This document shows positions 3,040-64,000 of a DNA stretch of 64,000 nucleotides, one piece after another. Below the pieces are notes generated by a model. The model did not search any database, was not told the origin of the DNA, and was given only the letters and a program-made list of their open reading frames with translations. The translations under genes were made by a program, and so were the position numbers. The stretch's first letter is position 1. Each line of letters opens with the position of its first letter. This DNA is from a virus (Duplodnaviria > Caudoviricetes): positions 1,246 to 65,245 of the IMG/VR virus record IMGVR_UViG_3300012930_000003; one strand, 5' to 3'.

Positions 3040-3121
3040 TTTCGGACTTGCGTATCGGTTCGGGTTGGTCGTAAGTTCCGGTTGCGGGGAATGTCGCCCC
3101 AGAACCCGCGCTTTGTAGTCC

Positions 3122-3670
3122 TCACCTTCGGCCCGAGCGGGAATCGCTCGGGCCGTTGGCGTTTCGATTTACCTGATGGTTCGGTCCGGCCCACGGTTCC
3201 GCGCGGAGATTGGCCAGAGTGCCGACCTTGCCTTCGATCCTCTGCAATATCCGGAATATCGGCGCGTAGGCTTCCTCAAGGCGGATTGCGAGGATTTCAC
3301 TGATGCCTGACCGGATCAGTTGTTCCTCGTATCTGATATTCGGTCGTGGCCCGATTGAGAACAGCCGCCAGTCTGTCAGGGCTGTGGCGACGTGTTGCTG
3401 CCATTTTTCCCGCGCGGTCAACTTTATCTCCGAATCGAATTGATGACAGTGGCGATATCGTCTGCGGTTTGCTGGGACCGCAGGCGGACGTTGGATAGAA
3501 CCGAATTGCTGCCGGACGGTCTCATGCTGGCGGACCATCTCGGCCGCTTCTTCCATCGGCATGAACTGGATGAGGCTGGCGCGGTAGACATCCTCGCTAA
3601 ATTCACCATCGCGGTATCGCTGGGATAGCGCGTCGATGAGTTCCGCTATGTCGCGTTCGTGGTAGGCCAT
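3122..3670 (-). CDS. Hypothetical protein
   Basis: ATG at 3670 coupled (TAATG) to the stop of the upstream small gene. Confidence 0.55.
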   Translation of the reverse strand: MAYHERDIAELIDALSQRYRDGEFSEDVYRASLIQFMPMEEAAEMVRQHETVRQQFGSIQRPPAVPANRRRYRHCHQFDSEIKLTAREKWQQHVATALTDWRLFSIGPRPNIRYEEQLIRSGISEILAIRLEEAYAPIFRILQRIEGKVGTLANLRAEPWAGPNHQVNRNANGPSDSRSGRR

Positions 3671-19249: not shown

Positions 19250-19705
19250 GTGAAGCCAACCGATTTACCCGAATATAGCGTCTGGACGACGATGAAGACG
19301 CGATGCAACAACTCTAATGCATGGAATTTCAAATACTACGGCGGGCGCGGCATCAGGGTCTGCGAGCGATGGGAAACGTTCGAGAATTTCTATGCGGACA
19401 TGGGGCCGCGCCCATCCCCAAAGCACGAATTGGAGCGGTTCAAAAACGATATTGGGTATGAGCCAGGAAATTGCGGTTGGGACACCCATAAAAACCAAAC
19501 CCGCAATCGGGGCAACAAGGTCACGGTGGATTTTCGAGGCCAGACTATGCTCTTGATCGAGGCTTGCGAATTGATGGGGGTGAAAATTGGTCCTGTATAC
19601 GTTCGGCTGAGGCTGGGGTGGAGTTTGGAGGATGCCCTATCTATCCCGCTTCGGGCTAAAGTTCCGAATGGGTGCGGACTTCGGGGTAAAAATAAGCAAA
19701 AATAA
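19250..19705 (+). CDS. HNH homing endonuclease
   Basis: W..MKTRC...YGGRGIRVCERW..FENFYADMG...YEPGNCGW. Confidence 0.82.
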   Translation: MKPTDLPEYSVWTTMKTRCNNSNAWNFKYYGGRGIRVCERWETFENFYADMGPRPSPKHELERFKNDIGYEPGNCGWDTHKNQTRNRGNKVTVDFRGQTMLLIEACELMGVKIGPVYVRLRLGWSLEDALSIPLRAKVPNGCGLRGKNKQK

Positions 19706-31039: not shown

Positions 31040-32602
31040 ATGAGCGACGCATCCGCTCTTGAGACCATCCGCCAAACGCCGGAATACCAGGCGAGCAAGA
31101 AGCAACTCGGAAACCGACATTGGCGCCTTAACAATTTATATTGGATTAAAAATGCTGACGGCGTGGCCGTGCCGTTTAGGCTCAATTTCGCGCAACAGCA
31201 TTATTCTGGGCGGGAGTGGTTTCGAGATACTATTCTGAAAAGCCGCAAGCTCGGGTTTTCTTCGTTTATCGGCATTCGGATGCTGGATACGTGCCTTTTC
31301 GCATCCAATAGCACGGGCGGCATCATTGACCAGACTTTGGATGACGCCAAGGCGAAGCTTGCAATCGCTAAATTCGCCTATGAGCGGATGCCACGATCCC
31401 TCCGTGAAGGGATGCCTCTGAACGTCGACAATCAAGAAGAGCTAAAATGGCAGAACGGCTCTAAGATTGTCGCCGGCACGTCCTACCGCGGCGATACCCC
31501 GCAAATGCTGCACGTGTCGGAGTTCGGTCCGATATCAGCCAAAAGTCCACTTATCGCGAAGGAAATCAAAACGGGGTCGATGGAATCGGTTCCGATCAAC
31601 GGCAAGATTTGGGTTGAGAGCACCGCCAAGGGCACATCCGGGGAATTCTATGATCTCGTGAATGCTGGCCAGCAATTGCAGGCGAGTGGGCAGGCGCTGA
31701 CGCAGCGTGATTTTCGCCTCCACTTCTACAATTGGACTATGAACCCGGCCAACCGCCTGCCGATCAACCTTGTGCACATCCCGGCAGACATGCGGGAGTA
31801 TTTCGAGGAACTGCGGACAAAGCACGGCATCGTAACGGACGGCCAACAGCAGGCTTGGTACGTCAAGACGCGCGAATTCCTGGGTCCTGACGATATGAAA
31901 TCAGAGCACCCATCAACGCCGGGGGAATGCTTCTTTGCGTCGCTGGAAGGCGCATACTTCAAGAACGAAATGAACGCCGCAAGGAAGGATAAGCGGATCG
32001 GTTTGCCTGTGCCGTACGACAATACGAGGCCGGTTCACACGGGGCTTGATCTCGGGATGGATGGCGCAATGGCAATCATATTTTTCCAGACCGACGGCGT
32101 TCGGCACAGGTTCATAGATTTTGCCAGGGGCGAGAGCGCTGGCCTATCCGACTTCATTCGGATCGTGAAAGAAAAGGCAACCACGCGGAATTGGATATAC
32201 GGTCGCCACTATTCTCCACATGATATCGAGGTCCGAGATTGGAGTAATATGAGCGGGGTCACAGCCAAAACCCGCAAGGAGGTTGCGGCCGAATACGGAA
32301 TAGATTTTACGGTTGTCGGTCGCGTGTCCGATAAATCCGATTCCATCGAATCGGCTCGGCGGCTAATCGCGACAAGCTATTTCTGTTCCGAGTATGCGGA
32401 AGGTCTTGTCGAGTCCCTGGATTCGTACAGTCGCATGTGGAACAAAACCACATCACAGTGGATGGCAACTCCGGCGAAAAACGGCTATGACCATGCGGCC
32501 GATGCGTTCCAGCAAATTTCCATGGGATTGCAGCCCGACCGCGTTCTAAGGCGTGATATGATCGACGGCGGAAAGAAAAAGGGGAGCCACTGGAGTGCGT
32601 AA
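31040..32602 (+). CDS. terL: Terminase large subunit
   Basis: WRLNNLYWI, Walker A LKSRKLGFS, Walker B LHVSE, ESTAKG, nuclease GLDLG and DHAADAF. Confidence 0.92.
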   Translation: MSDASALETIRQTPEYQASKKQLGNRHWRLNNLYWIKNADGVAVPFRLNFAQQHYSGREWFRDTILKSRKLGFSSFIGIRMLDTCLFASNSTGGIIDQTLDDAKAKLAIAKFAYERMPRSLREGMPLNVDNQEELKWQNGSKIVAGTSYRGDTPQMLHVSEFGPISAKSPLIAKEIKTGSMESVPINGKIWVESTAKGTSGEFYDLVNAGQQLQASGQALTQRDFRLHFYNWTMNPANRLPINLVHIPADMREYFEELRTKHGIVTDGQQQAWYVKTREFLGPDDMKSEHPSTPGECFFASLEGAYFKNEMNAARKDKRIGLPVPYDNTRPVHTGLDLGMDGAMAIIFFQTDGVRHRFIDFARGESAGLSDFIRIVKEKATTRNWIYGRHYSPHDIEVRDWSNMSGVTAKTRKEVAAEYGIDFTVVGRVSDKSDSIESARRLIATSYFCSEYAEGLVESLDSYSRMWNKTTSQWMATPAKNGYDHAADAFQQISMGLQPDRVLRRDMIDGGKKKGSHWSA

Positions 32603-33146
32603 GATCGGAACGAGCAACGCGATTGATTTGGCGGGAATGAGGTTCGTGCGCCTTTCCGTTATTCGACGCGGCCCGAACAACAAACACAGCCAAACCACAT
32701 GGCTCTGTCGCTGCGACTGCGGCACCGAGAGAGTATTCGCTGGCCGGGATTTGCGTGATGGCGATACCAAATCTTGCGGCTGTTTAGATGTGGAATTGCG
32801 GGCTACCCGCAATGTGACGCACGGCCACGCTCGCGTCGGCAAACTCTCCCCTGAATATCGGACATGGCGCAATATCCATGGGCGATGCAACGATCTTTCG
32901 GATGGTCGGTATGGTGGCCGTGGAATCGCGGTCTGCGAACGCTGGGGTGTCTTTGAAAATTTCCTAGCTGACATGGGCGACAAACCATCGCCCCGCCACT
33001 CTATCGATCGATATCCAGACAATAACGGCAACTACGCGCCAGATAACTGTCGGTGGGCGACTGCAAAGCAACAGGCGGCCAATCGACGCCCACGGCGCGA
33101 TCATGTGGCGTCCCGCAATCCGATCGATGCACATGAACCGCGCTGA
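32595..33146 (+). CDS. HNH homing endonuclease
   Basis: DLAGMRF.RL...WLCRCDCG...KSCGC...YGGRGIAVCERW...SIDRYPDNNGNYAPDNCRWAT. Confidence 0.88.
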   Translation: MRKIGTSNAIDLAGMRFVRLSVIRRGPNNKHSQTTWLCRCDCGTERVFAGRDLRDGDTKSCGCLDVELRATRNVTHGHARVGKLSPEYRTWRNIHGRCNDLSDGRYGGRGIAVCERWGVFENFLADMGDKPSPRHSIDRYPDNNGNYAPDNCRWATAKQQAANRRPRRDHVASRNPIDAHEPR

Positions 33147-58660: not shown

Positions 58661-59082
58661 TGCTGGTTCAAACCAATCTACGGGTGCACCCAACGGCGGC
58701 GGCTCGGAACATTTACTATGAGGCTGCGGCTCCGATCACGGCCAACAATGTGCAGGATGCGATTGAGCAGGCTGCGGCCAGCGGCGGGGCGTCGATAACG
58801 CCGACGAACATTGCCATCGGGCAGTCGCCCTACACGGTGCTGGCGGCCGATCGGTATATCCGGGTGGATACATCCGGTGGCAACGTCACCATTAATATGA
58901 TGCCGTCAGCCGCTCGCAATGGCCTTGATGTTGAAATCAAGAAGGTCACCGCAGATGCTAATTCGGCTTCCGCCGTCCGTAATGGTGGAGAGGACATCGA
59001 CGGCATCGTGTCATATCCAATCGATTCGCCGCTGCTTGCGGTGAGGTTCATGCCGAGGGCAAATGGCTATGATGTTGTTTAG
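58657..59082 (+). CDS. Small tail fibre/adaptor protein
   Basis: ANNVQDAIEQ and SPYTVLAADRYIRVDTSGGNVTI motifs. Confidence 0.65.
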   Translation: MMLVQTNLRVHPTAAARNIYYEAAAPITANNVQDAIEQAAASGGASITPTNIAIGQSPYTVLAADRYIRVDTSGGNVTINMMPSAARNGLDVEIKKVTADANSASAVRNGGEDIDGIVSYPIDSPLLAVRFMPRANGYDVV

Positions 59083-61936
59083 GAAACTTCGCTCGTCATT
59101 GTCTGCACTCGCAACGTCCCTCGCCGTTGCGGGTATGATGCTATCGCCTGTGCTTGCTCAACAGGGTATCCAATTCCCGACAGGAACCATCTACGGCAAC
59201 GACACGGCGTCAACGCGATCTGGCAAGACAGCCACGATGTCGTCGATGTTCGACCGCGCCTATTGTTCGACGGTCGGCTATGTGATTGCCCGCACCATCG
59301 GAACTTGGACGTGCTCGCAGAATATCCCGGTCAAGGCGTCCTATTACGGCGCCATCTGCGACAGCGCGACGACGACATTTGCAGCGAAACTGCAAGATGC
59401 CGTAACGGCTGCGCAGAACGCTGGCGGCCTTCCGGTTGAATTGCCGCCGCCTGCCACCGTCGGCGCGAAATGCATTCACACAACCAGCGTGTGGACGAAC
59501 ATCTGGGCTGGCGCTGGCGTCTTGGCCGCGCCTGGAATGGACATCCGTGGCGTCGACCGTGATGTGACCGTGCTCGATACCCGCGTGGTCGGGTATGCGT
59601 TCGCGACCAATCCGGATTGGCAGTCGGCTTATAAATCGCTCTACCTTTCGACGGTCGGGGCTGGCGGCGTTCTGGCGTCTGGAACCTACTACGTCCAGAT
59701 TACAATGACCGACCCGTCCGCCAACGAGGTATTGGTGACATCGGCAGAGCCGTTCACCGTCCCCGCTACGGGTCGGGTGACATTGCCGCTGCAATCGGTC
59801 CATACCGGATACTGCTACAACATCTATATTTCCGCTTCTAGCCTGATGACATCCTCAAGTTACGGGAAGATCAGTGGCTCCGATGCAATCTGCTTGGGCG
59901 GAAACCAGAGCGTCAATCTGACCGATTTTGGCACGGCTCATGCGGTTCCGACCAATAAGGTCGCGGTCTGGCAGCAAGCCAATTTCGAGAAATTCTCGAT
60001 CACAAATCCCACCGCAGTAGCGGGGGCAAACTGCCTGAGTATTTTCAAGGTCGCGTATACGACCGTCGACAAGTTCTATTGCTCCAGCGTCGTCGATGGC
60101 ATCGATATTCTGACCTATTTCGGCGATGCCGATGGCAGTTTCAACGTCAAGATTACCCAATCTAAATTCAACGGCGTGAGCGGATGGGGCATTAACGGCG
60201 CTGGCGCGGCGGCGGGCCTGTCCTACCTCTTTGTGGAAAACGTAATCTGCAATCTCTGCGGAACGCTGCCGGCGAACTATTTCCCGCCATCCCTTTATGG
60301 CTCTGGATTTGGAATCAGCACGATCTCGCGCGCCAGCCCGAACGTGATGACGACGACGGCTCCGCATACGCTGCAGACCAATGACGAGATTTACATTACC
60401 GGCGTCTTTGGCAGCATGACGCAGCTTGTGAACGGCTGGTATCGCGTCAACGTGACTGGGGCATCGACACTCAACCTTGAGGATTTGGTTACCGGAACGA
60501 TCATCGATACCTCAGGGTTCACGCCATATACGACTGGCGGCGCATTCGCGCTGGCATGGCGTCCTCCGACACAGACGACGGGATCGGGAGGGTTTGCATG
60601 GGGCGGCCTTTCCGCAACCTTCAAGCATTCCGGGTGCACACAGGCAAACGGCACATGCTTCTACGCTACCGAGGTTGTCGGGTCGAACAATCTGAAACTG
60701 GATAATTTCACGGCCGAAAATACGCTCGGCAAGGGGTATTACATCGGGTCTCTGGCCGGCGGTGAATTCTCCGGCATCGAGGTATTGAGCGCGGTGGCCT
60801 ATGGCCAGACCCATGCCGGGATGCAACTCGGCACCGGCTTTGCCGCCGGCGGGGTTTCAAACGTCACCGTATCCAGCGCCAAGGTACGGTCGGATGTGAC
60901 GATTGCCATTGGGTTCGAGCAATTCCGAAACACGAACAATCCCACGGCGTTCACCGATTCAAACCGCGTCCGGAACGTCACTTGGACAACGTACGACCTT
61001 GCGGCAACGCAAGAGCGGTTTCGGGCATTTACTTTTGATCCGATCCCGGGCCAAGTTCAGCTTTCGATATCGGCGGTCAATACCGCACAGCTTATCCCCG
61101 TTGGATATGGCGGCTGCCTCCCGATTCATCTCAAGGCAACGGGTGAATGGGTTTGCGTTCGTGTCCCGAGCGCGGGTGTCACTCAAGCCGGCATTGGCGG
61201 GCTTTCGGCGACCACCACTTATCAACTCTACGCCTACAACTCGGCTGCGACCAATGCGCCATATGCCATTTCGATGGAGGTAAGCGCTACTGGCGTGGCT
61301 CTTGATGCCGCTGGATATTATGTGAAATCCAGCGATAGCACGCGGACTTTCGTCGGGCAGGCGAGGACCGATGGCAGCGGAAATTTCCAGACATCTGGAA
61401 CGCAGAGCACTCTTTTCCCGATCCAGTCCACCGTTCCGATTGTAACGACCGCTGGTGCGGTGTCATGTCCGACATGTGCGGTGACTGGCACCACTATTAC
61501 CGGAGCATATGGCATCACCGGAGGCGGCGATCTTTCGGCCAACCGAACGTTGGGCGTCAACCTCACTACGGCCGCCAACTCCATCGGCGGCAACGTCGCC
61601 ATGAACAATACGGCGAACTATTTCGATGGTCCCAGCATGGCGCAGGGCACCACTGGGACATGGTGGGCTTCCGGTACGGTTACTGTCACAGATACTGCGG
61701 CGACCGCGAATATCGTTTGCAAGCTTTGGGACGGGACAACCGTAATCGATAGCGGTTCTCTGACCACGGCCACGATTGGCCAAAACGCGACTATGACGCT
61801 ATCGGGAACGCTGGCCAGTCCGGCCGCGAACATGCGCATGTCGTGCCGGGATATTTCGGCAACCACTGGTCTGATTTTGAGTGGGGCGAGCGGCAACACC
61901 AAAGACAGCACAATCACAGGCGTTAGAATTCAATAA
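59063..61936 (+). CDS. Tailspike/receptor-binding protein (beta-helix-like) with signal peptide
   Basis: YGAICD...LQDAV beta-helix cap. 957 aa, Thr/Gly/Ser-rich, 18 Cys. Last tail gene. Confidence 0.75.
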   Translation: MAMMLFRKLRSSLSALATSLAVAGMMLSPVLAQQGIQFPTGTIYGNDTASTRSGKTATMSSMFDRAYCSTVGYVIARTIGTWTCSQNIPVKASYYGAICDSATTTFAAKLQDAVTAAQNAGGLPVELPPPATVGAKCIHTTSVWTNIWAGAGVLAAPGMDIRGVDRDVTVLDTRVVGYAFATNPDWQSAYKSLYLSTVGAGGVLASGTYYVQITMTDPSANEVLVTSAEPFTVPATGRVTLPLQSVHTGYCYNIYISASSLMTSSSYGKISGSDAICLGGNQSVNLTDFGTAHAVPTNKVAVWQQANFEKFSITNPTAVAGANCLSIFKVAYTTVDKFYCSSVVDGIDILTYFGDADGSFNVKITQSKFNGVSGWGINGAGAAAGLSYLFVENVICNLCGTLPANYFPPSLYGSGFGISTISRASPNVMTTTAPHTLQTNDEIYITGVFGSMTQLVNGWYRVNVTGASTLNLEDLVTGTIIDTSGFTPYTTGGAFALAWRPPTQTTGSGGFAWGGLSATFKHSGCTQANGTCFYATEVVGSNNLKLDNFTAENTLGKGYYIGSLAGGEFSGIEVLSAVAYGQTHAGMQLGTGFAAGGVSNVTVSSAKVRSDVTIAIGFEQFRNTNNPTAFTDSNRVRNVTWTTYDLAATQERFRAFTFDPIPGQVQLSISAVNTAQLIPVGYGGCLPIHLKATGEWVCVRVPSAGVTQAGIGGLSATTTYQLYAYNSAATNAPYAISMEVSATGVALDAAGYYVKSSDSTRTFVGQARTDGSGNFQTSGTQSTLFPIQSTVPIVTTAGAVSCPTCAVTGTTITGAYGITGGGDLSANRTLGVNLTTAANSIGGNVAMNNTANYFDGPSMAQGTTGTWWASGTVTVTDTAATANIVCKLWDGTTVIDSGSLTTATIGQNATMTLSGTLASPAANMRMSCRDISATTGLILSGASGNTKDSTITGVRIQ

Positions 61937-61948
61937 AGGGGTTGCATC

Positions 61949-62077
61949 ATGCCAATCGACCGAAAGTTATTTTTTGCAGGCATTCGCCAAAGTCCATTTC
62001 CGGGGAAATTGACATCGGGCCAGGTCTCCGGAACGTCGGCCATTCTGGACGAGTGGGAGCGGCGCAATGCGCGGTAA
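61949..62077 (+). pseudogene. 42-codon N-terminal stub of a GH19-type endolysin
   Basis: AAGGGG RBS. MPIDRKLFFAGIRQSPFPGKLTSGQVSGTSAILDEWERRNAR*. Ends inside the start of the HNH gene. Confidence 0.6.
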
Positions 62078-62747
62078 ACGCAGCGAGGAATGGGTTGGCG
62101 TCAGGCTCGGAAAACTCATTATCACCGAATTCTTGGGTCTGACTTCGTTCGGTCGCGGCCAGTCTGCATATTTCAAATTCAAGTGCGATTGCGGCAATGA
62201 GTTTGTAGCACAGAAGTCCAATGTGATTGGAAAAAAGAAAGATTGCGGATGCTCTGAAACTAAATCAGTTGGAACCTCGCCACGCGGGTTTACTCACCAT
62301 CCGTTGAGCAAAATATGGCGCGCACTCATTTCCAGATGCTATCTAGATACCGATGGCAGTTACCCCGACTACGGCGCGCGAGGCATTTCTGTCTGCGGTC
62401 GTTGGATTGATGGCGAGAACGGCCTAACTGGTTTCGAGTGTTTTGTTGACGACATGGGGATGCGTCCAAAGGGTAATTACACCGTCGAACGCATTGAAGT
62501 GAACGGAAATTATGAGCCGTCCAATTGCAAATGGCTGCATAAATCTGGGCAGTCAAAGAACCGACGCAACGTTCCTATGATAACAATCGATGGCCGGACA
62601 ATGTGCATACCAGATTGGTGCCGAGAGACTGGCGTCGGCTATTGGGTCGCTGTCCATCGCATCAAAAGGAAGGGGTGGCCGCCATCGGTCGCCGTTACAA
62701 TCCCGAACGGAATACATTCGTTCGCGCCAACCGGAGAGCATCAATGA
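62067..62747 (+). CDS. HNH homing endonuclease
   Basis: FKCDCG...DCGC...YGARGISVCGRW...FVDDMG...VERIEVNGNYEPSNCKW. AT-rich. Confidence 0.88.
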   Translation: MRGKRSEEWVGVRLGKLIITEFLGLTSFGRGQSAYFKFKCDCGNEFVAQKSNVIGKKKDCGCSETKSVGTSPRGFTHHPLSKIWRALISRCYLDTDGSYPDYGARGISVCGRWIDGENGLTGFECFVDDMGMRPKGNYTVERIEVNGNYEPSNCKWLHKSGQSKNRRNVPMITIDGRTMCIPDWCRETGVGYWVAVHRIKRKGWPPSVAVTIPNGIHSFAPTGEHQ

Positions 62748-63217
62748 CTATTTGGCCGAAAGATAATACAGCCGCGAAGAATGCCTTCTACGGTGATTTT
62801 CAGGATAAGGCTTGGGCAAGCCAATATTTGGTTCGAATCCACCCGCAGTTCATCATCTACTATGCCAAGAAGCCGATGCCGGCTGGTGTTCTTCTCAACA
62901 AGAAGTGCGCTGCGGCTATGCAGGCTGCATTTGATGAGATTTGGGAAAAGTGCGGTCACGATCAAAAACAGGTCGATAAGGCTGGGGCATCGGATTATGC
63001 CGGATGCTTCAATATCCGCAAGATCGCCGGAAGCAACAACTACTCCAACCATTCTTGGGCCTGCGCCATTGACTTATCGCCAGGAACCAACGGCTTCAAT
63101 ATGAAGGGCACACTTAGCCCGATTGTGGTAAACGCCTTCAAGCGGCAAGGCGCTCGATGGGGGGGCGACTACAAAGGCCGCAAGGACCCCATGCATTTCG
63201 AATTCGTTTCATCATAG
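62744..63217 (+). CDS. Endolysin, M15 family Zn peptidase
   Basis: FNIRKIAG...SNHSWACAIDL...WGGDY...DPMHFE. GGAG RBS and ATGA overlap. Confidence 0.88.
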   Translation: MTIWPKDNTAAKNAFYGDFQDKAWASQYLVRIHPQFIIYYAKKPMPAGVLLNKKCAAAMQAAFDEIWEKCGHDQKQVDKAGASDYAGCFNIRKIAGSNNYSNHSWACAIDLSPGTNGFNMKGTLSPIVVNAFKRQGARWGGDYKGRKDPMHFEFVSS

Positions 63218-63230
63218 AAAGGGATTATCC

Positions 63231-63527
63231 GTGAACAGCACACAGTTACAGACAACTTCAGCAACACTTGCCGGCGTGCTTGCCGGCTATGCCGCCGGAC
63301 ACGGCTGGCTTGGGTTGGACTTGGGAGCATGGACCGCCATCATTGCCGGGGGTATCGCGATTTGGCCCGCTATCGTTACGCGGGCTACGTCGCTCAAAAA
63401 TACGGTGGGCGGCATGAAGAACACTACAGTCGTTACTGACGCGGCGAGTGCTGCGGCACTCCCCGACAACAAGGATGTGATCGCAGCAACTCCGGCGATT
63501 GTGGCAGCCATAAAGCAGGCGGCATGA
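63231..63527 (+). CDS. Putative holin
   Basis: Two hydrophobic helices, directly after the endolysin. Confidence 0.6.
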   Translation: MNSTQLQTTSATLAGVLAGYAAGHGWLGLDLGAWTAIIAGGIAIWPAIVTRATSLKNTVGGMKNTTVVTDAASAAALPDNKDVIAATPAIVAAIKQAA

Positions 63528-63928
63528 CCATGAAACGCATCATCGCAATCACGTTGCTCGGGCTATTCCTCGCCGGCTGTGCCAAAGAGATGGCGCTGCT
63601 AGGGACCATCCAGCAAGTCGCCACGGCGACGGTGCCGGCCAGCGTCGTTATCCCTGCCGCCAATGCCTTCGATATCCTCAAAGACACGGCGACGAACTAT
63701 GCTCGGTACTGCATTCAGGGGAAATTCGTTGACGCGATTTGTTCGGCTGGCAATCGTCGAATTGTCGTCAAGTTCGTCCGCTCCGGCACGTCGGCGCGGG
63801 ATCAACTGGAGGATAGCGTCCAGAACGGTACGCCTGCGGCGGCATCAATCTATAATGTCCTCGTGGCTGCCGTGCAGGGTCTACAGGGGACGCCTGCCGC
63901 GTCGTCGCAATTTGGAGGTGCCAAGTGA
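63524..63928 (+). CDS. Lipoprotein (spanin candidate)
   Basis: MKRIIAITLLGLFLAG-C lipobox, in the lysis cassette. Confidence 0.65.
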   Translation: MTMKRIIAITLLGLFLAGCAKEMALLGTIQQVATATVPASVVIPAANAFDILKDTATNYARYCIQGKFVDAICSAGNRRIVVKFVRSGTSARDQLEDSVQNGTPAAASIYNVLVAAVQGLQGTPAASSQFGGAK

Positions 63929-64000
63929 AAACAATCACGATGATGGAACTTCGTAAGTCGCCGGGAGAATATGCCTTCCGTGTACGTGCCGATGGGGAGA
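63925..64000 (+). CDS. Partial ORF with Phd/YefM antitoxin-like N-terminus
   Basis: GGAGGT RBS, GTG start, MKTITMMELRKSPGEYAFRVRADGE. Truncated by the window end. Confidence 0.45.
   Translation, partial: MKTITMMELRKSPGEYAFRVRADGE

Follow-up and report, generated by a model that had tools for sequence, protein, structure and literature searches.

A GH19-like endolysin remnant, an HNH-family gene and an intact M15 endolysin at the lysis locus of a Caudoviricetes virus: a candidate recombinant cassette

The window analysed here is a stretch of 64,000 nucleotides (nt) that covers bases 1246-65245 of the complete, 65,245-base IMG/VR virus record IMGVR_UViG_3300012930_000003 (a soil phage, Caudoviricetes), which carries direct terminal repeats. 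Its lysis region lies at the right end of the window, with all genes listed here on the plus strand, and contains a 42-codon remnant of a GH19-like endolysin gene (hereafter the stub), a gene of the HNH family and an intact endolysin gene of the M15 peptidase type (Table 1). The stop codon of the stub sits 11 nt within the 226-amino-acid HNH-family open reading frame (ORF), and the TGA of this ORF overlaps the ATG of the M15 gene (62744) as ATGA. A sequence-only reading of the window had described the same layout, in which a 42-codon ORF behind a ribosome-binding site follows the tailspike gene, stops 11 nt into the HNH gene and is succeeded by the ATGA overlap with M15, and, the tailspike label apart, this description is confirmed, down to the 42 residues that it quoted. 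The RNA fold of 61925-62110 is unremarkable (z -0.41), a promoter and terminator scan of the locus remained at chance level, and blastn of 59000-64000 against phage records gave no match.

Table 1. Features of the lysis region at the right end of the window.
Feature	Coordinates	Strand	Basis or remark
957-amino-acid tail-fibre or tailspike-like ORF (context)	59063-61936	+	ORF list; TAA at 61934-61936
AAGGGG, Shine-Dalgarno-like, 7 nt 5' of the stub ATG	61936-61941	+	Sequence reading; counterpart in L002 is AAGGA
42-codon GH19-like endolysin remnant (stub), ATG at 61949	61949-62077	+	ORF and homology searches
GGGAG, 7 nt 5' of the HNH-family ATG	62055-62059	+	Sequence reading; within the E-W-E codons of the stub
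226-amino-acid HNH-family (PHROG label), homing-endonuclease-like gene	62067-62747	+	PHROG matches
660 nt specific to the window relative to L002 (insert or replacement)	62068-62727	+	DNA alignments
M15 upstream region common with L002, contains GGAGAG (62733-62738)	62728-62743	+	DNA alignment
157-amino-acid Peptidase_M15_4 endolysin, intact	62744-63217	+	PF13539, PHROG 17001
98-amino-acid holin-like membrane protein	63231-63527	+	Position and hydrophobic segments
134-amino-acid lipoprotein-like protein	63524-63928	+	Weak LPAM_1 match

Homology searches place the stub at the N-terminus of the GH19-like endolysins, with a resemblance well beyond chance. With the stub as query, tblastn against 50,697 phage records matched 42 records (best E ~1e-6), including 26 from Rhizobium, 10 from Ruegeria and 3 from Sinorhizobium phages; 25 of the 42 cover at least 80% of the query, and the matches fall at the starts of genes annotated as chitinase, GH19 or lysozyme-like. 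The stub aligns with the N-termini of Rhizobium phage 16-3 p029, Ruegeria phage DSS3-P1 gp40 and Sinorhizobium phage phi2LM21 p54 at 46-55% identity, and with uncultured GH19-like forms of 184 amino acids at 85-100%. In a set of 5.8 billion proteins, 26 longer proteins match it, the best of which is P0005, an intact protein of 184 amino acids that shares every one of residues 1-39 with the stub and then runs on into the conserved catalytic segment. Codons 1-39/40 of the stub derive from GH19; the inserted DNA supplies its last two to three codons and its stop. Neither Pfam nor the PHROGs gave a match to the stub, and a search of the whole genome with it returned the stub as the sole match, with no 3' part of a GH19 gene after the insert.

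Unlike the GH19-like ("chitinase-like") endolysins of alphaproteobacterial phages, the stub stops before the conserved catalytic segment. In alignments, the W/H-E-T...QP-x-x-E segment of intact relatives starts at about residue 55, and the stub ends at residue 42. The E of W/H-E-T and the E of QP-x-x-E are presumably the catalytic acidic residues of GH19-like endolysins, and because it ends before these conserved acidic residues the stub is regarded as a remnant and not as an enzyme. Among ten intact relatives searched with Pfam Glyco_hydro_19 (PF00182), two pass the cut-off of 25.5 (DSS3-P1 with 30.4 bits and L046 with 31.2 bits), seven score below the threshold (13.6-24.9 bits) and one has no match; as few intact relatives pass, "GH19-like" is the appropriate wording. 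PHROG 181, labelled endolysin, is matched both by the 82-amino-acid remnant of the contig L002, discussed below, and by the intact protein of L042. The latter contig has the gene order fibre (with a C-terminus like that in the window), intact GH19, small membrane protein and lipoprotein, and a GH19-like endolysin is the kind used by the nearest flank-relatives of the window phage.

The enzyme encoded downstream belongs to an unrelated family. The 157-amino-acid protein matches Peptidase_M15_4 (PF13539) with an E-value of 4.3e-14 and 53.3 bits against a cut-off of 25, as well as PHROG 17001, labelled endolysin (E 1.1e-11); NCBIfam gave no match. It aligns over residues 98-154 to the L-alanyl-D-glutamate peptidase Ply500 (2vo9, E 3.4e-5), and the alignment includes its segments SNHSWACAID and DPMH, whose SNH...D and D..H residues we take to be metal-binding. 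In comparison to Ply500, the window protein is single-domain, has no cell-wall-binding domain and aligns only in its C-terminal 60 residues. It is the only endolysin-type gene detected in the lysis region of the window, and is the predicted present endolysin of the phage. Three propositions of the sequence-only reading thus stand: that the stub is a GH19-like N-terminus, which the homology search it had suggested bears out with 42 phage records and 39 of 39 residues shared with P0005; that a resident glycosidase gene was truncated, its reading frame ending exactly where the HNH-family ORF starts; and that an intact, non-homologous M15 gene was its substitute, being the sole endolysin left in the lysis region.

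The breakpoints can be located through L002, the sole close relative found and the only contig syntenic with the window on both sides (it was also recovered as L039, L118, L153 and L233, which are one contig). Amino acid identity between L002 and the window is 94% for M15, 98% for the holin-like protein and 81% for the lipoprotein-like protein, with further matches to the left end of the genome. The GH19 remnant of L002 is longer than the stub, with an ORF of 82 codons of which about 70 are GH19-derived, reaching W-E-T and QPIIEGGG, and the stub is 90% identical to its start. About 200 nt, which may be the 3' end of a fibre gene from a donor, follow and then the M15 gene, with no HNH gene between; in tblastx and blastn comparisons of this gap (L002 3190-3395) with all loci and the window, only the 19 nt before M15 rose above chance level. 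Coming from the left, homology to L002 extends as far as 62067, where the A of the HNH ATG stands, and is picked up again at 62728. The latter point lies 16 nt 5' of the M15 start codon, and all 19 nt counted from it agree with L002 3377-3395. The window-specific 660 nt in between nearly coincide with the HNH ORF, and L002 has 274 unrelated nt in their place (3103-3376). In effect, a difference of the size of one ORF, present in the window and absent from L002, is seen at a single site between close relatives with homologous flanks on both sides. Both ends of the HNH gene borrow from resident DNA. Its likely ribosome-binding site (GGGAG) belongs to the resident GH19 codons and recurs in L002 as well as in intact GH19 genes, and the M15 upstream region provides its final six codons together with its stop.

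Scans with the M15 protein, the remnant, the holin-like protein and the HNH protein gave 34, 79, 15 and 17 viral loci, together with 80 metagenome loci. Among 114 M15 loci, 53 distinct ones were informative, each with the gene start and at least 400 nt upstream. None of these 53 has an HNH-family gene within 1.5 kb upstream, and only L002 has a GH19 piece upstream. In L013, the tailspike stop abuts an M15 gene (75% identical) that is followed by a holin-like gene (51%), and in L154 and L155 a structural or fibre gene directly precedes M15 (85-86% identical). All three lack both the stub and the HNH gene next to M15. The HNH and M15 genes are separable, since L002 carries a GH19 piece and M15 without HNH and none of the 53 M15 loci has HNH upstream. 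A further arrangement is found in L010 (5971-8038), where M15 (66% identical) is followed by a 219-amino-acid GH19-like protein and then by a 329-amino-acid lipase-like protein. Predicted tandem peptidoglycan hydrolase genes therefore occur in this phage group, which makes an ancestor with both enzymes plausible.

Other truncated GH19 genes were sought among 78 GH19 loci, of which nine were not counted as full length: three are cut by contig ends (L111, L113, L117), four have a late alignment start (L092, L093, L105, L116) and two are in two pieces (L053, L107). A search with the stub as query finds only forms that retain the stub region; in the set of 5.8 billion proteins there are four short GH19-like proteins with differing end points, P0001, P0003 and P0004 among them. 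P0001, which is known from the protein only, has 69 amino acids, with 46 GH19 N-terminal residues and a Gly-rich tail resembling a fibre C-terminus; its GH19 part breaks off within RWLAYM, whose 18 nt are the best-conserved of the GH19 gene family.

The 226-amino-acid protein matches four PHROGs labelled HNH endonuclease, with E-values from 2.6e-46 to 8.5e-9 (PHROG 374, E 2.6e-46; PHROG 3377, E 3.4e-41; PHROGs 2081 and 953). The family spans 1,061 phage records, the best phage homologue is named HNH endonuclease by RefSeq, and the ORF is full length relative to 12 homologues. Among 13 aligned members, R142, N153 and N165 are invariant, and 90% or more of the members share four N-terminal Cys residues. 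A four-Cys module at the N-terminus of the protein is followed by an HNH-like core and, at the C-terminus, by a helical module; the AlphaFold model has a predicted local distance difference test score (pLDDT) of 81.4. A Pfam scan to E 1 gave only DUF1922 and CapR noise, NCBIfam gave nothing, and phmmer against PDB sequences gave only E 1.2. The guanine-plus-cytosine (GC) content of the insert is 0.511 in comparison to 0.581 for the window, placing it at the 2.5th percentile of 660-nt windows. The window genome holds three copies of the family, namely the 62067 gene and two paralogues at 19250-19705 and 32595-33146, which are 36% and 42% identical to it; the second of these directly follows a 520-amino-acid ORF (31040-32602) that is presumably the large terminase. 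Two diverged paralogues (34-37% identical) are also found in the L002 record, both elsewhere. Given the ORF-sized presence and absence, the several diverged copies and the low GC content, the 62067 gene appears to behave like a free-standing homing-endonuclease gene, with cleavage and homing being predicted only.

HNH-family genes are often near lysis genes. On the opposite strand, one directly adjoins an intact GH19 gene in L095 and L096 (6557-7078) and in L107 (5409-5930); L095 and L096 look like one phage, so these represent two distinct phages. In L188 and L205, an HNH-family gene lies about 500 nt downstream of M15. Residues 20-63 of the window protein (62126-62255), which form the four-Cys module, have a faint Pfam similarity to the CapR homology domain (E 0.66), a domain described from relatives of the ICP1 homing endonuclease (PMC10448857). 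A group I intron or other self-splicing element was considered and dropped, as an Rfam scan of 61700-63400 with E up to 1 gave no match, no GH19 3' exon is present and the downstream gene is M15. Insertion of the HNH gene at the most conserved spot of GH19 was likewise rejected. The 18 nt encoding DEWERR at the insertion point rank 300th of 568 windows across 56 unique GH19 genes, and the top-ranking block, RWLAYM, lies just downstream, about 15-30 nt past the point of insertion; the window has lost it. As the insertion point is not the most conserved spot of GH19, any argument from a target site is only suggestive.

Two soil runs (X1 and X2) were compared with 60500-64000 of the window. Contigs of X1 span both the stub/HNH and the HNH/M15 junctions with zero differences, though X1 may be the source sample and is then not independent. 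A 5,813-nt contig of X2 matches 62021-62067 and then, beyond that piece, reads into a diverged GH19 N-terminus; the same contig matches again at 63217-63582, across the holin-like gene, with 10 differences in 366 nt (97%). An intact 184-amino-acid GH19 protein, P0012, comes from a single contig of 5,813 nt and carries the peptides of the X2 pieces, including SPFPGKLSAG. The X2 contig probably encodes this intact protein between its two matching pieces, and very probably a relative exists in which an intact GH19 gene stands directly before a nearly identical (97%) holin-like gene. Parts of the window uncovered by X2 (for example, 62138-62371) were not counted as absence. Depth in the same run is similar for its tailspike-like contig (record 9) and for the GH19/holin contig (record 14), which may stem from different genomes.

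A history may be proposed in which GH19 with the holin-like gene would be one standard cassette of this phage group and M15 with the holin-like gene another. In the lineage that gave rise to the window and L002, M15 would have come to lie behind GH19, standing either in tandem behind the intact gene or behind a remnant like that of L002. HNH and M15 would be two separate units, with M15 present first. The HNH gene would then have replaced GH19 from codon 41 through about 16-19 nt before the M15 start. On this account, L002 would have lost GH19 through a deletion or a rearrangement, and the window would have lost it when a free-standing HNH-family gene took its place. The flanks, comprising the fibre genes and the holin-like gene, would have been exchanged further. 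The truncation would be recent and the stub functionless. Taken jointly, the interpretation of the locus as a recombinant lysis cassette with separate HNH and M15 units, M15 first, a recent truncation and a functionless stub is considered moderately probable.

Several observations weigh against this proposal, some concerning the order of events and others the HNH-family protein. The argument rests on one close relative, L002, and the direction of change between L002 and the window is inferred. The stub is closer to P0005 (39 of 39 amino acids) than to the L002 remnant (36 of 39), and the two fragments may not share one origin. No case of an intact GH19 gene immediately followed by this M15 gene was seen among the 78 GH19 and 114 M15 loci, and the part of the window without an X2 counterpart is exactly HNH plus M15 (1,149 nt), as a model with one cassette predicts. 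As for the protein, none of its His residues is invariant in the 13 aligned family members, a conserved set of His-Asn-His/Asn catalytic residues was not found in them, and the position of the first His of the HNH motif appears to read E/D-R-I in the family alignment. Foldseek of the model against the PDB gave no match at E <=0.001, and the top VIA-align row, the HNH enzyme PacI (3m7k), is a weak fold match whose Z of 5.7 is below the trustworthy level of the tool (root-mean-square deviation 4.2 over 78 residues, model residues 69-168). The protein is thus HNH-family by label, and its nuclease nature is putative and unproven.

The foremost alternative is the entry of HNH and M15 as a single block into a phage with the order tailspike-GH19-holin, replacing GH19 from codon 41 to its end. 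The similarity of the X2 contig stops at 62067 and restarts at 63217, bracketing HNH and M15 as this model would have it; the contig most probably encodes the intact P0012, and the holin-like gene beyond differs at only 10 of 366 nt. The ATGA overlap of HNH and M15 also speaks for joint arrival, as does a recombination boundary at the M15/holin junction, where the synonymous divergence (dS) from L002 is 0.36 for the holin-like gene (63231-63527 against L002 3880-4173), far below the 1.35 of M15. However, in L002 this M15 gene and its shared 19-nt upstream region follow a GH19 remnant with no HNH gene present, and divergence from L002 is equal for the stub and for M15 (82.5-84% nucleotide identity). 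The absence of HNH upstream of M15 at all 53 informative loci means that no donor of the required type has been seen, and the left junction would have to hit the HNH start codon exactly by chance. Entry as a single block is accordingly judged unlikely, if still to be reckoned with. The sequence-only reading had proposed just such a joint HNH+M15 cassette, of which the joint arrival is kept alive by the X2 contig, while L002 and the M15 loci point to separable units. In the comparison of lysis loci of related phages that it had called for, one relative very probably has the full-length GH19 gene (P0012), and none of the 53 informative M15 loci has an HNH-family gene upstream; the occurrence of M15 in relatives that have neither HNH nor stub, which it had named as refuting it, is seen in L013, L154 and L155. 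Its further suggestion that the stub was kept as a leader for translational coupling is not upheld, given that the HNH ORF has its own GGGAG, that the RNA fold is unremarkable and that it is the amino acid sequence of the stub that is constrained, for which coupling has no need.

This constraint raises the alternative of a functional micro-protein kept by selection, either as a leader for downstream genes or in a role of its own. Over codons 1-40, the window and L002 differ by 16.5 synonymous and 4.5 non-synonymous changes, with a dS of 1.14, and the ratio of non-synonymous to synonymous divergence (dN/dS, omega) is 0.03-0.04 over 37-40 codons (0.044 for codons 1-40; binomial P 5e-7 against neutrality), which is near the 0.028 of M15. 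The start codon and Shine-Dalgarno-like site are kept in both the window and L002, and P0001, with its unrelated tail, provides a third truncated form. As a dead fragment cannot hold constraint for long, the fragments are either recent, independent truncations or functional. The former is favoured because codons 41-70 of L002, which would be useless alone, are as constrained as codons 1-40 (omega 0.08-0.10 against intact genes, in comparison to 0.06-0.10 between intact genes), because the stub has the very sequence of the N-terminus of the intact enzyme, and because short GH19-like forms are rare and end at different points rather than forming a conserved stub family. The lack of special RNA structure also counts against a leader. 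The constraint is hence thought to reflect recent truncation instead of function, and a selected micro-protein is very improbable. Decidedly improbable as well is the alternative that the 226-amino-acid protein is no mobile nuclease but a domesticated DNA-binding protein with a Zn-ribbon and a helix-turn-helix-like tail, taken into the lysis region, and the GH19 truncation an unrelated deletion. The missing invariant His, the lack of a Pfam HNH match, the faint CapR similarity and the weak fold matches would agree with such a protein, but an ORF-sized difference from L002, multiple diverged and scattered copies in the window genome and the L002 record, the strong HNH-labelled PHROG matches with the RefSeq name of the best homologue, and an HNH enzyme, PacI, as the top structural match would not.

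The proposed recombinant cassette with separately acquired HNH and M15 genes can be compared to known nuclease genes of phages. In ICP1, as in other phages, homing-endonuclease genes lie at the boundaries of genetic exchange, according to Barth, Dunham and Seed (2023; PMC10448857). The window gene resembles the seg and mob genes of T4 and the homing-endonuclease genes of ICP1 in being a compact nuclease-family ORF that is present here and absent from a close relative, in lying beside or inside an important gene, in having flanks of different histories and in existing as several diverged copies. It differs from them in that its family has no invariant His and its cleavage and homing are predicted only, in that the insert lacks its own stop codon and stands in place of 274 nt of the DNA of the relative instead of being a clean addition, and in that neither splicing nor a split-protein arrangement restores the interrupted gene. 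HNH genes in introns of Pectobacterium phage CB7 and the splitting of nrdA by mobE in Aeromonas phage Aeh1, as described in PMC7344957, similarly place an HNH-family ORF within the reading frame of a phage gene. Unlike those cases, the window has neither an intron signal nor a GH19 3' part, and an unrelated M15 gene with its own start follows, as it does in relatives without the stub. No prior report of this exact arrangement was found among the literature matches listed, in a search of limited extent. Introns also occur in the lysin genes of Staphylococcus and Streptococcus phages.

The case is one of ordinary phage gene shuffling seen while fresh. Three states of the locus can be compared, namely GH19 intact and followed by the holin-like gene, a remnant of GH19 with M15, and a GH19 stub with HNH and M15, and together they provide a clean and datable snapshot of the rebuilding of a lysis cassette with junctions exact to the base. 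The position of a nuclease-family gene on the junction fits the published view that such genes mark exchange boundaries in phages. For annotation, the stub is a warning that very low dN/dS in a short ORF does not necessarily point to a functional micro-protein, since the recent truncation of a gene can leave the same signal. A bolder extension would have the HNH protein be an active homing endonuclease that targets the conserved 5' third of GH19 genes, so that the HNH+M15 unit destroys or converts the GH19 gene that is the only endolysin gene of co-infecting relatives while its carrier is immune and still lyses; this is regarded as improbable. Were the HNH protein to cut GH19 genes, the locus would illustrate how a selfish element enters an essential gene once another enzyme can take over, and homing into an essential gene would become tolerable through a non-homologous substitute.

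The 957-amino-acid ORF upstream of the stub has no PHROG match and no Pfam match above the cut-off, so the tailspike label is unconfirmed by family search; its residues 47-786 (740 residues) are 43% identical to a 1302-amino-acid protein that precedes M15 in L013. The body of the protein matches L013 and L131, and its last ~125 residues (61560-61936) are 42-56% identical to the much shorter fibres of L002, L042, L046 and L175. As the C-terminus and the body match different phages, the fibre is a mosaic. Downstream, the 98-amino-acid protein has no Pfam or PHROG match, and its position and hydrophobic segments suggest a holin-like function. The 134-amino-acid protein has weak matches to LPAM_1 (E 0.0096) and to an Rz-like spanin PHROG (E 0.12) and may be spanin-like. 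Between its fibre gene and its GH19 remnant, L002 carries a 109-amino-acid ORF (2651-2980) whose product has a membrane segment at the N-terminus and a coiled-coil tail and can be read as Rz/i-spanin-like. This ORF is absent from the window, and weak homologues of it are found 0.2-1.3 kb upstream of M15 in L007, L008, L017 and L188.

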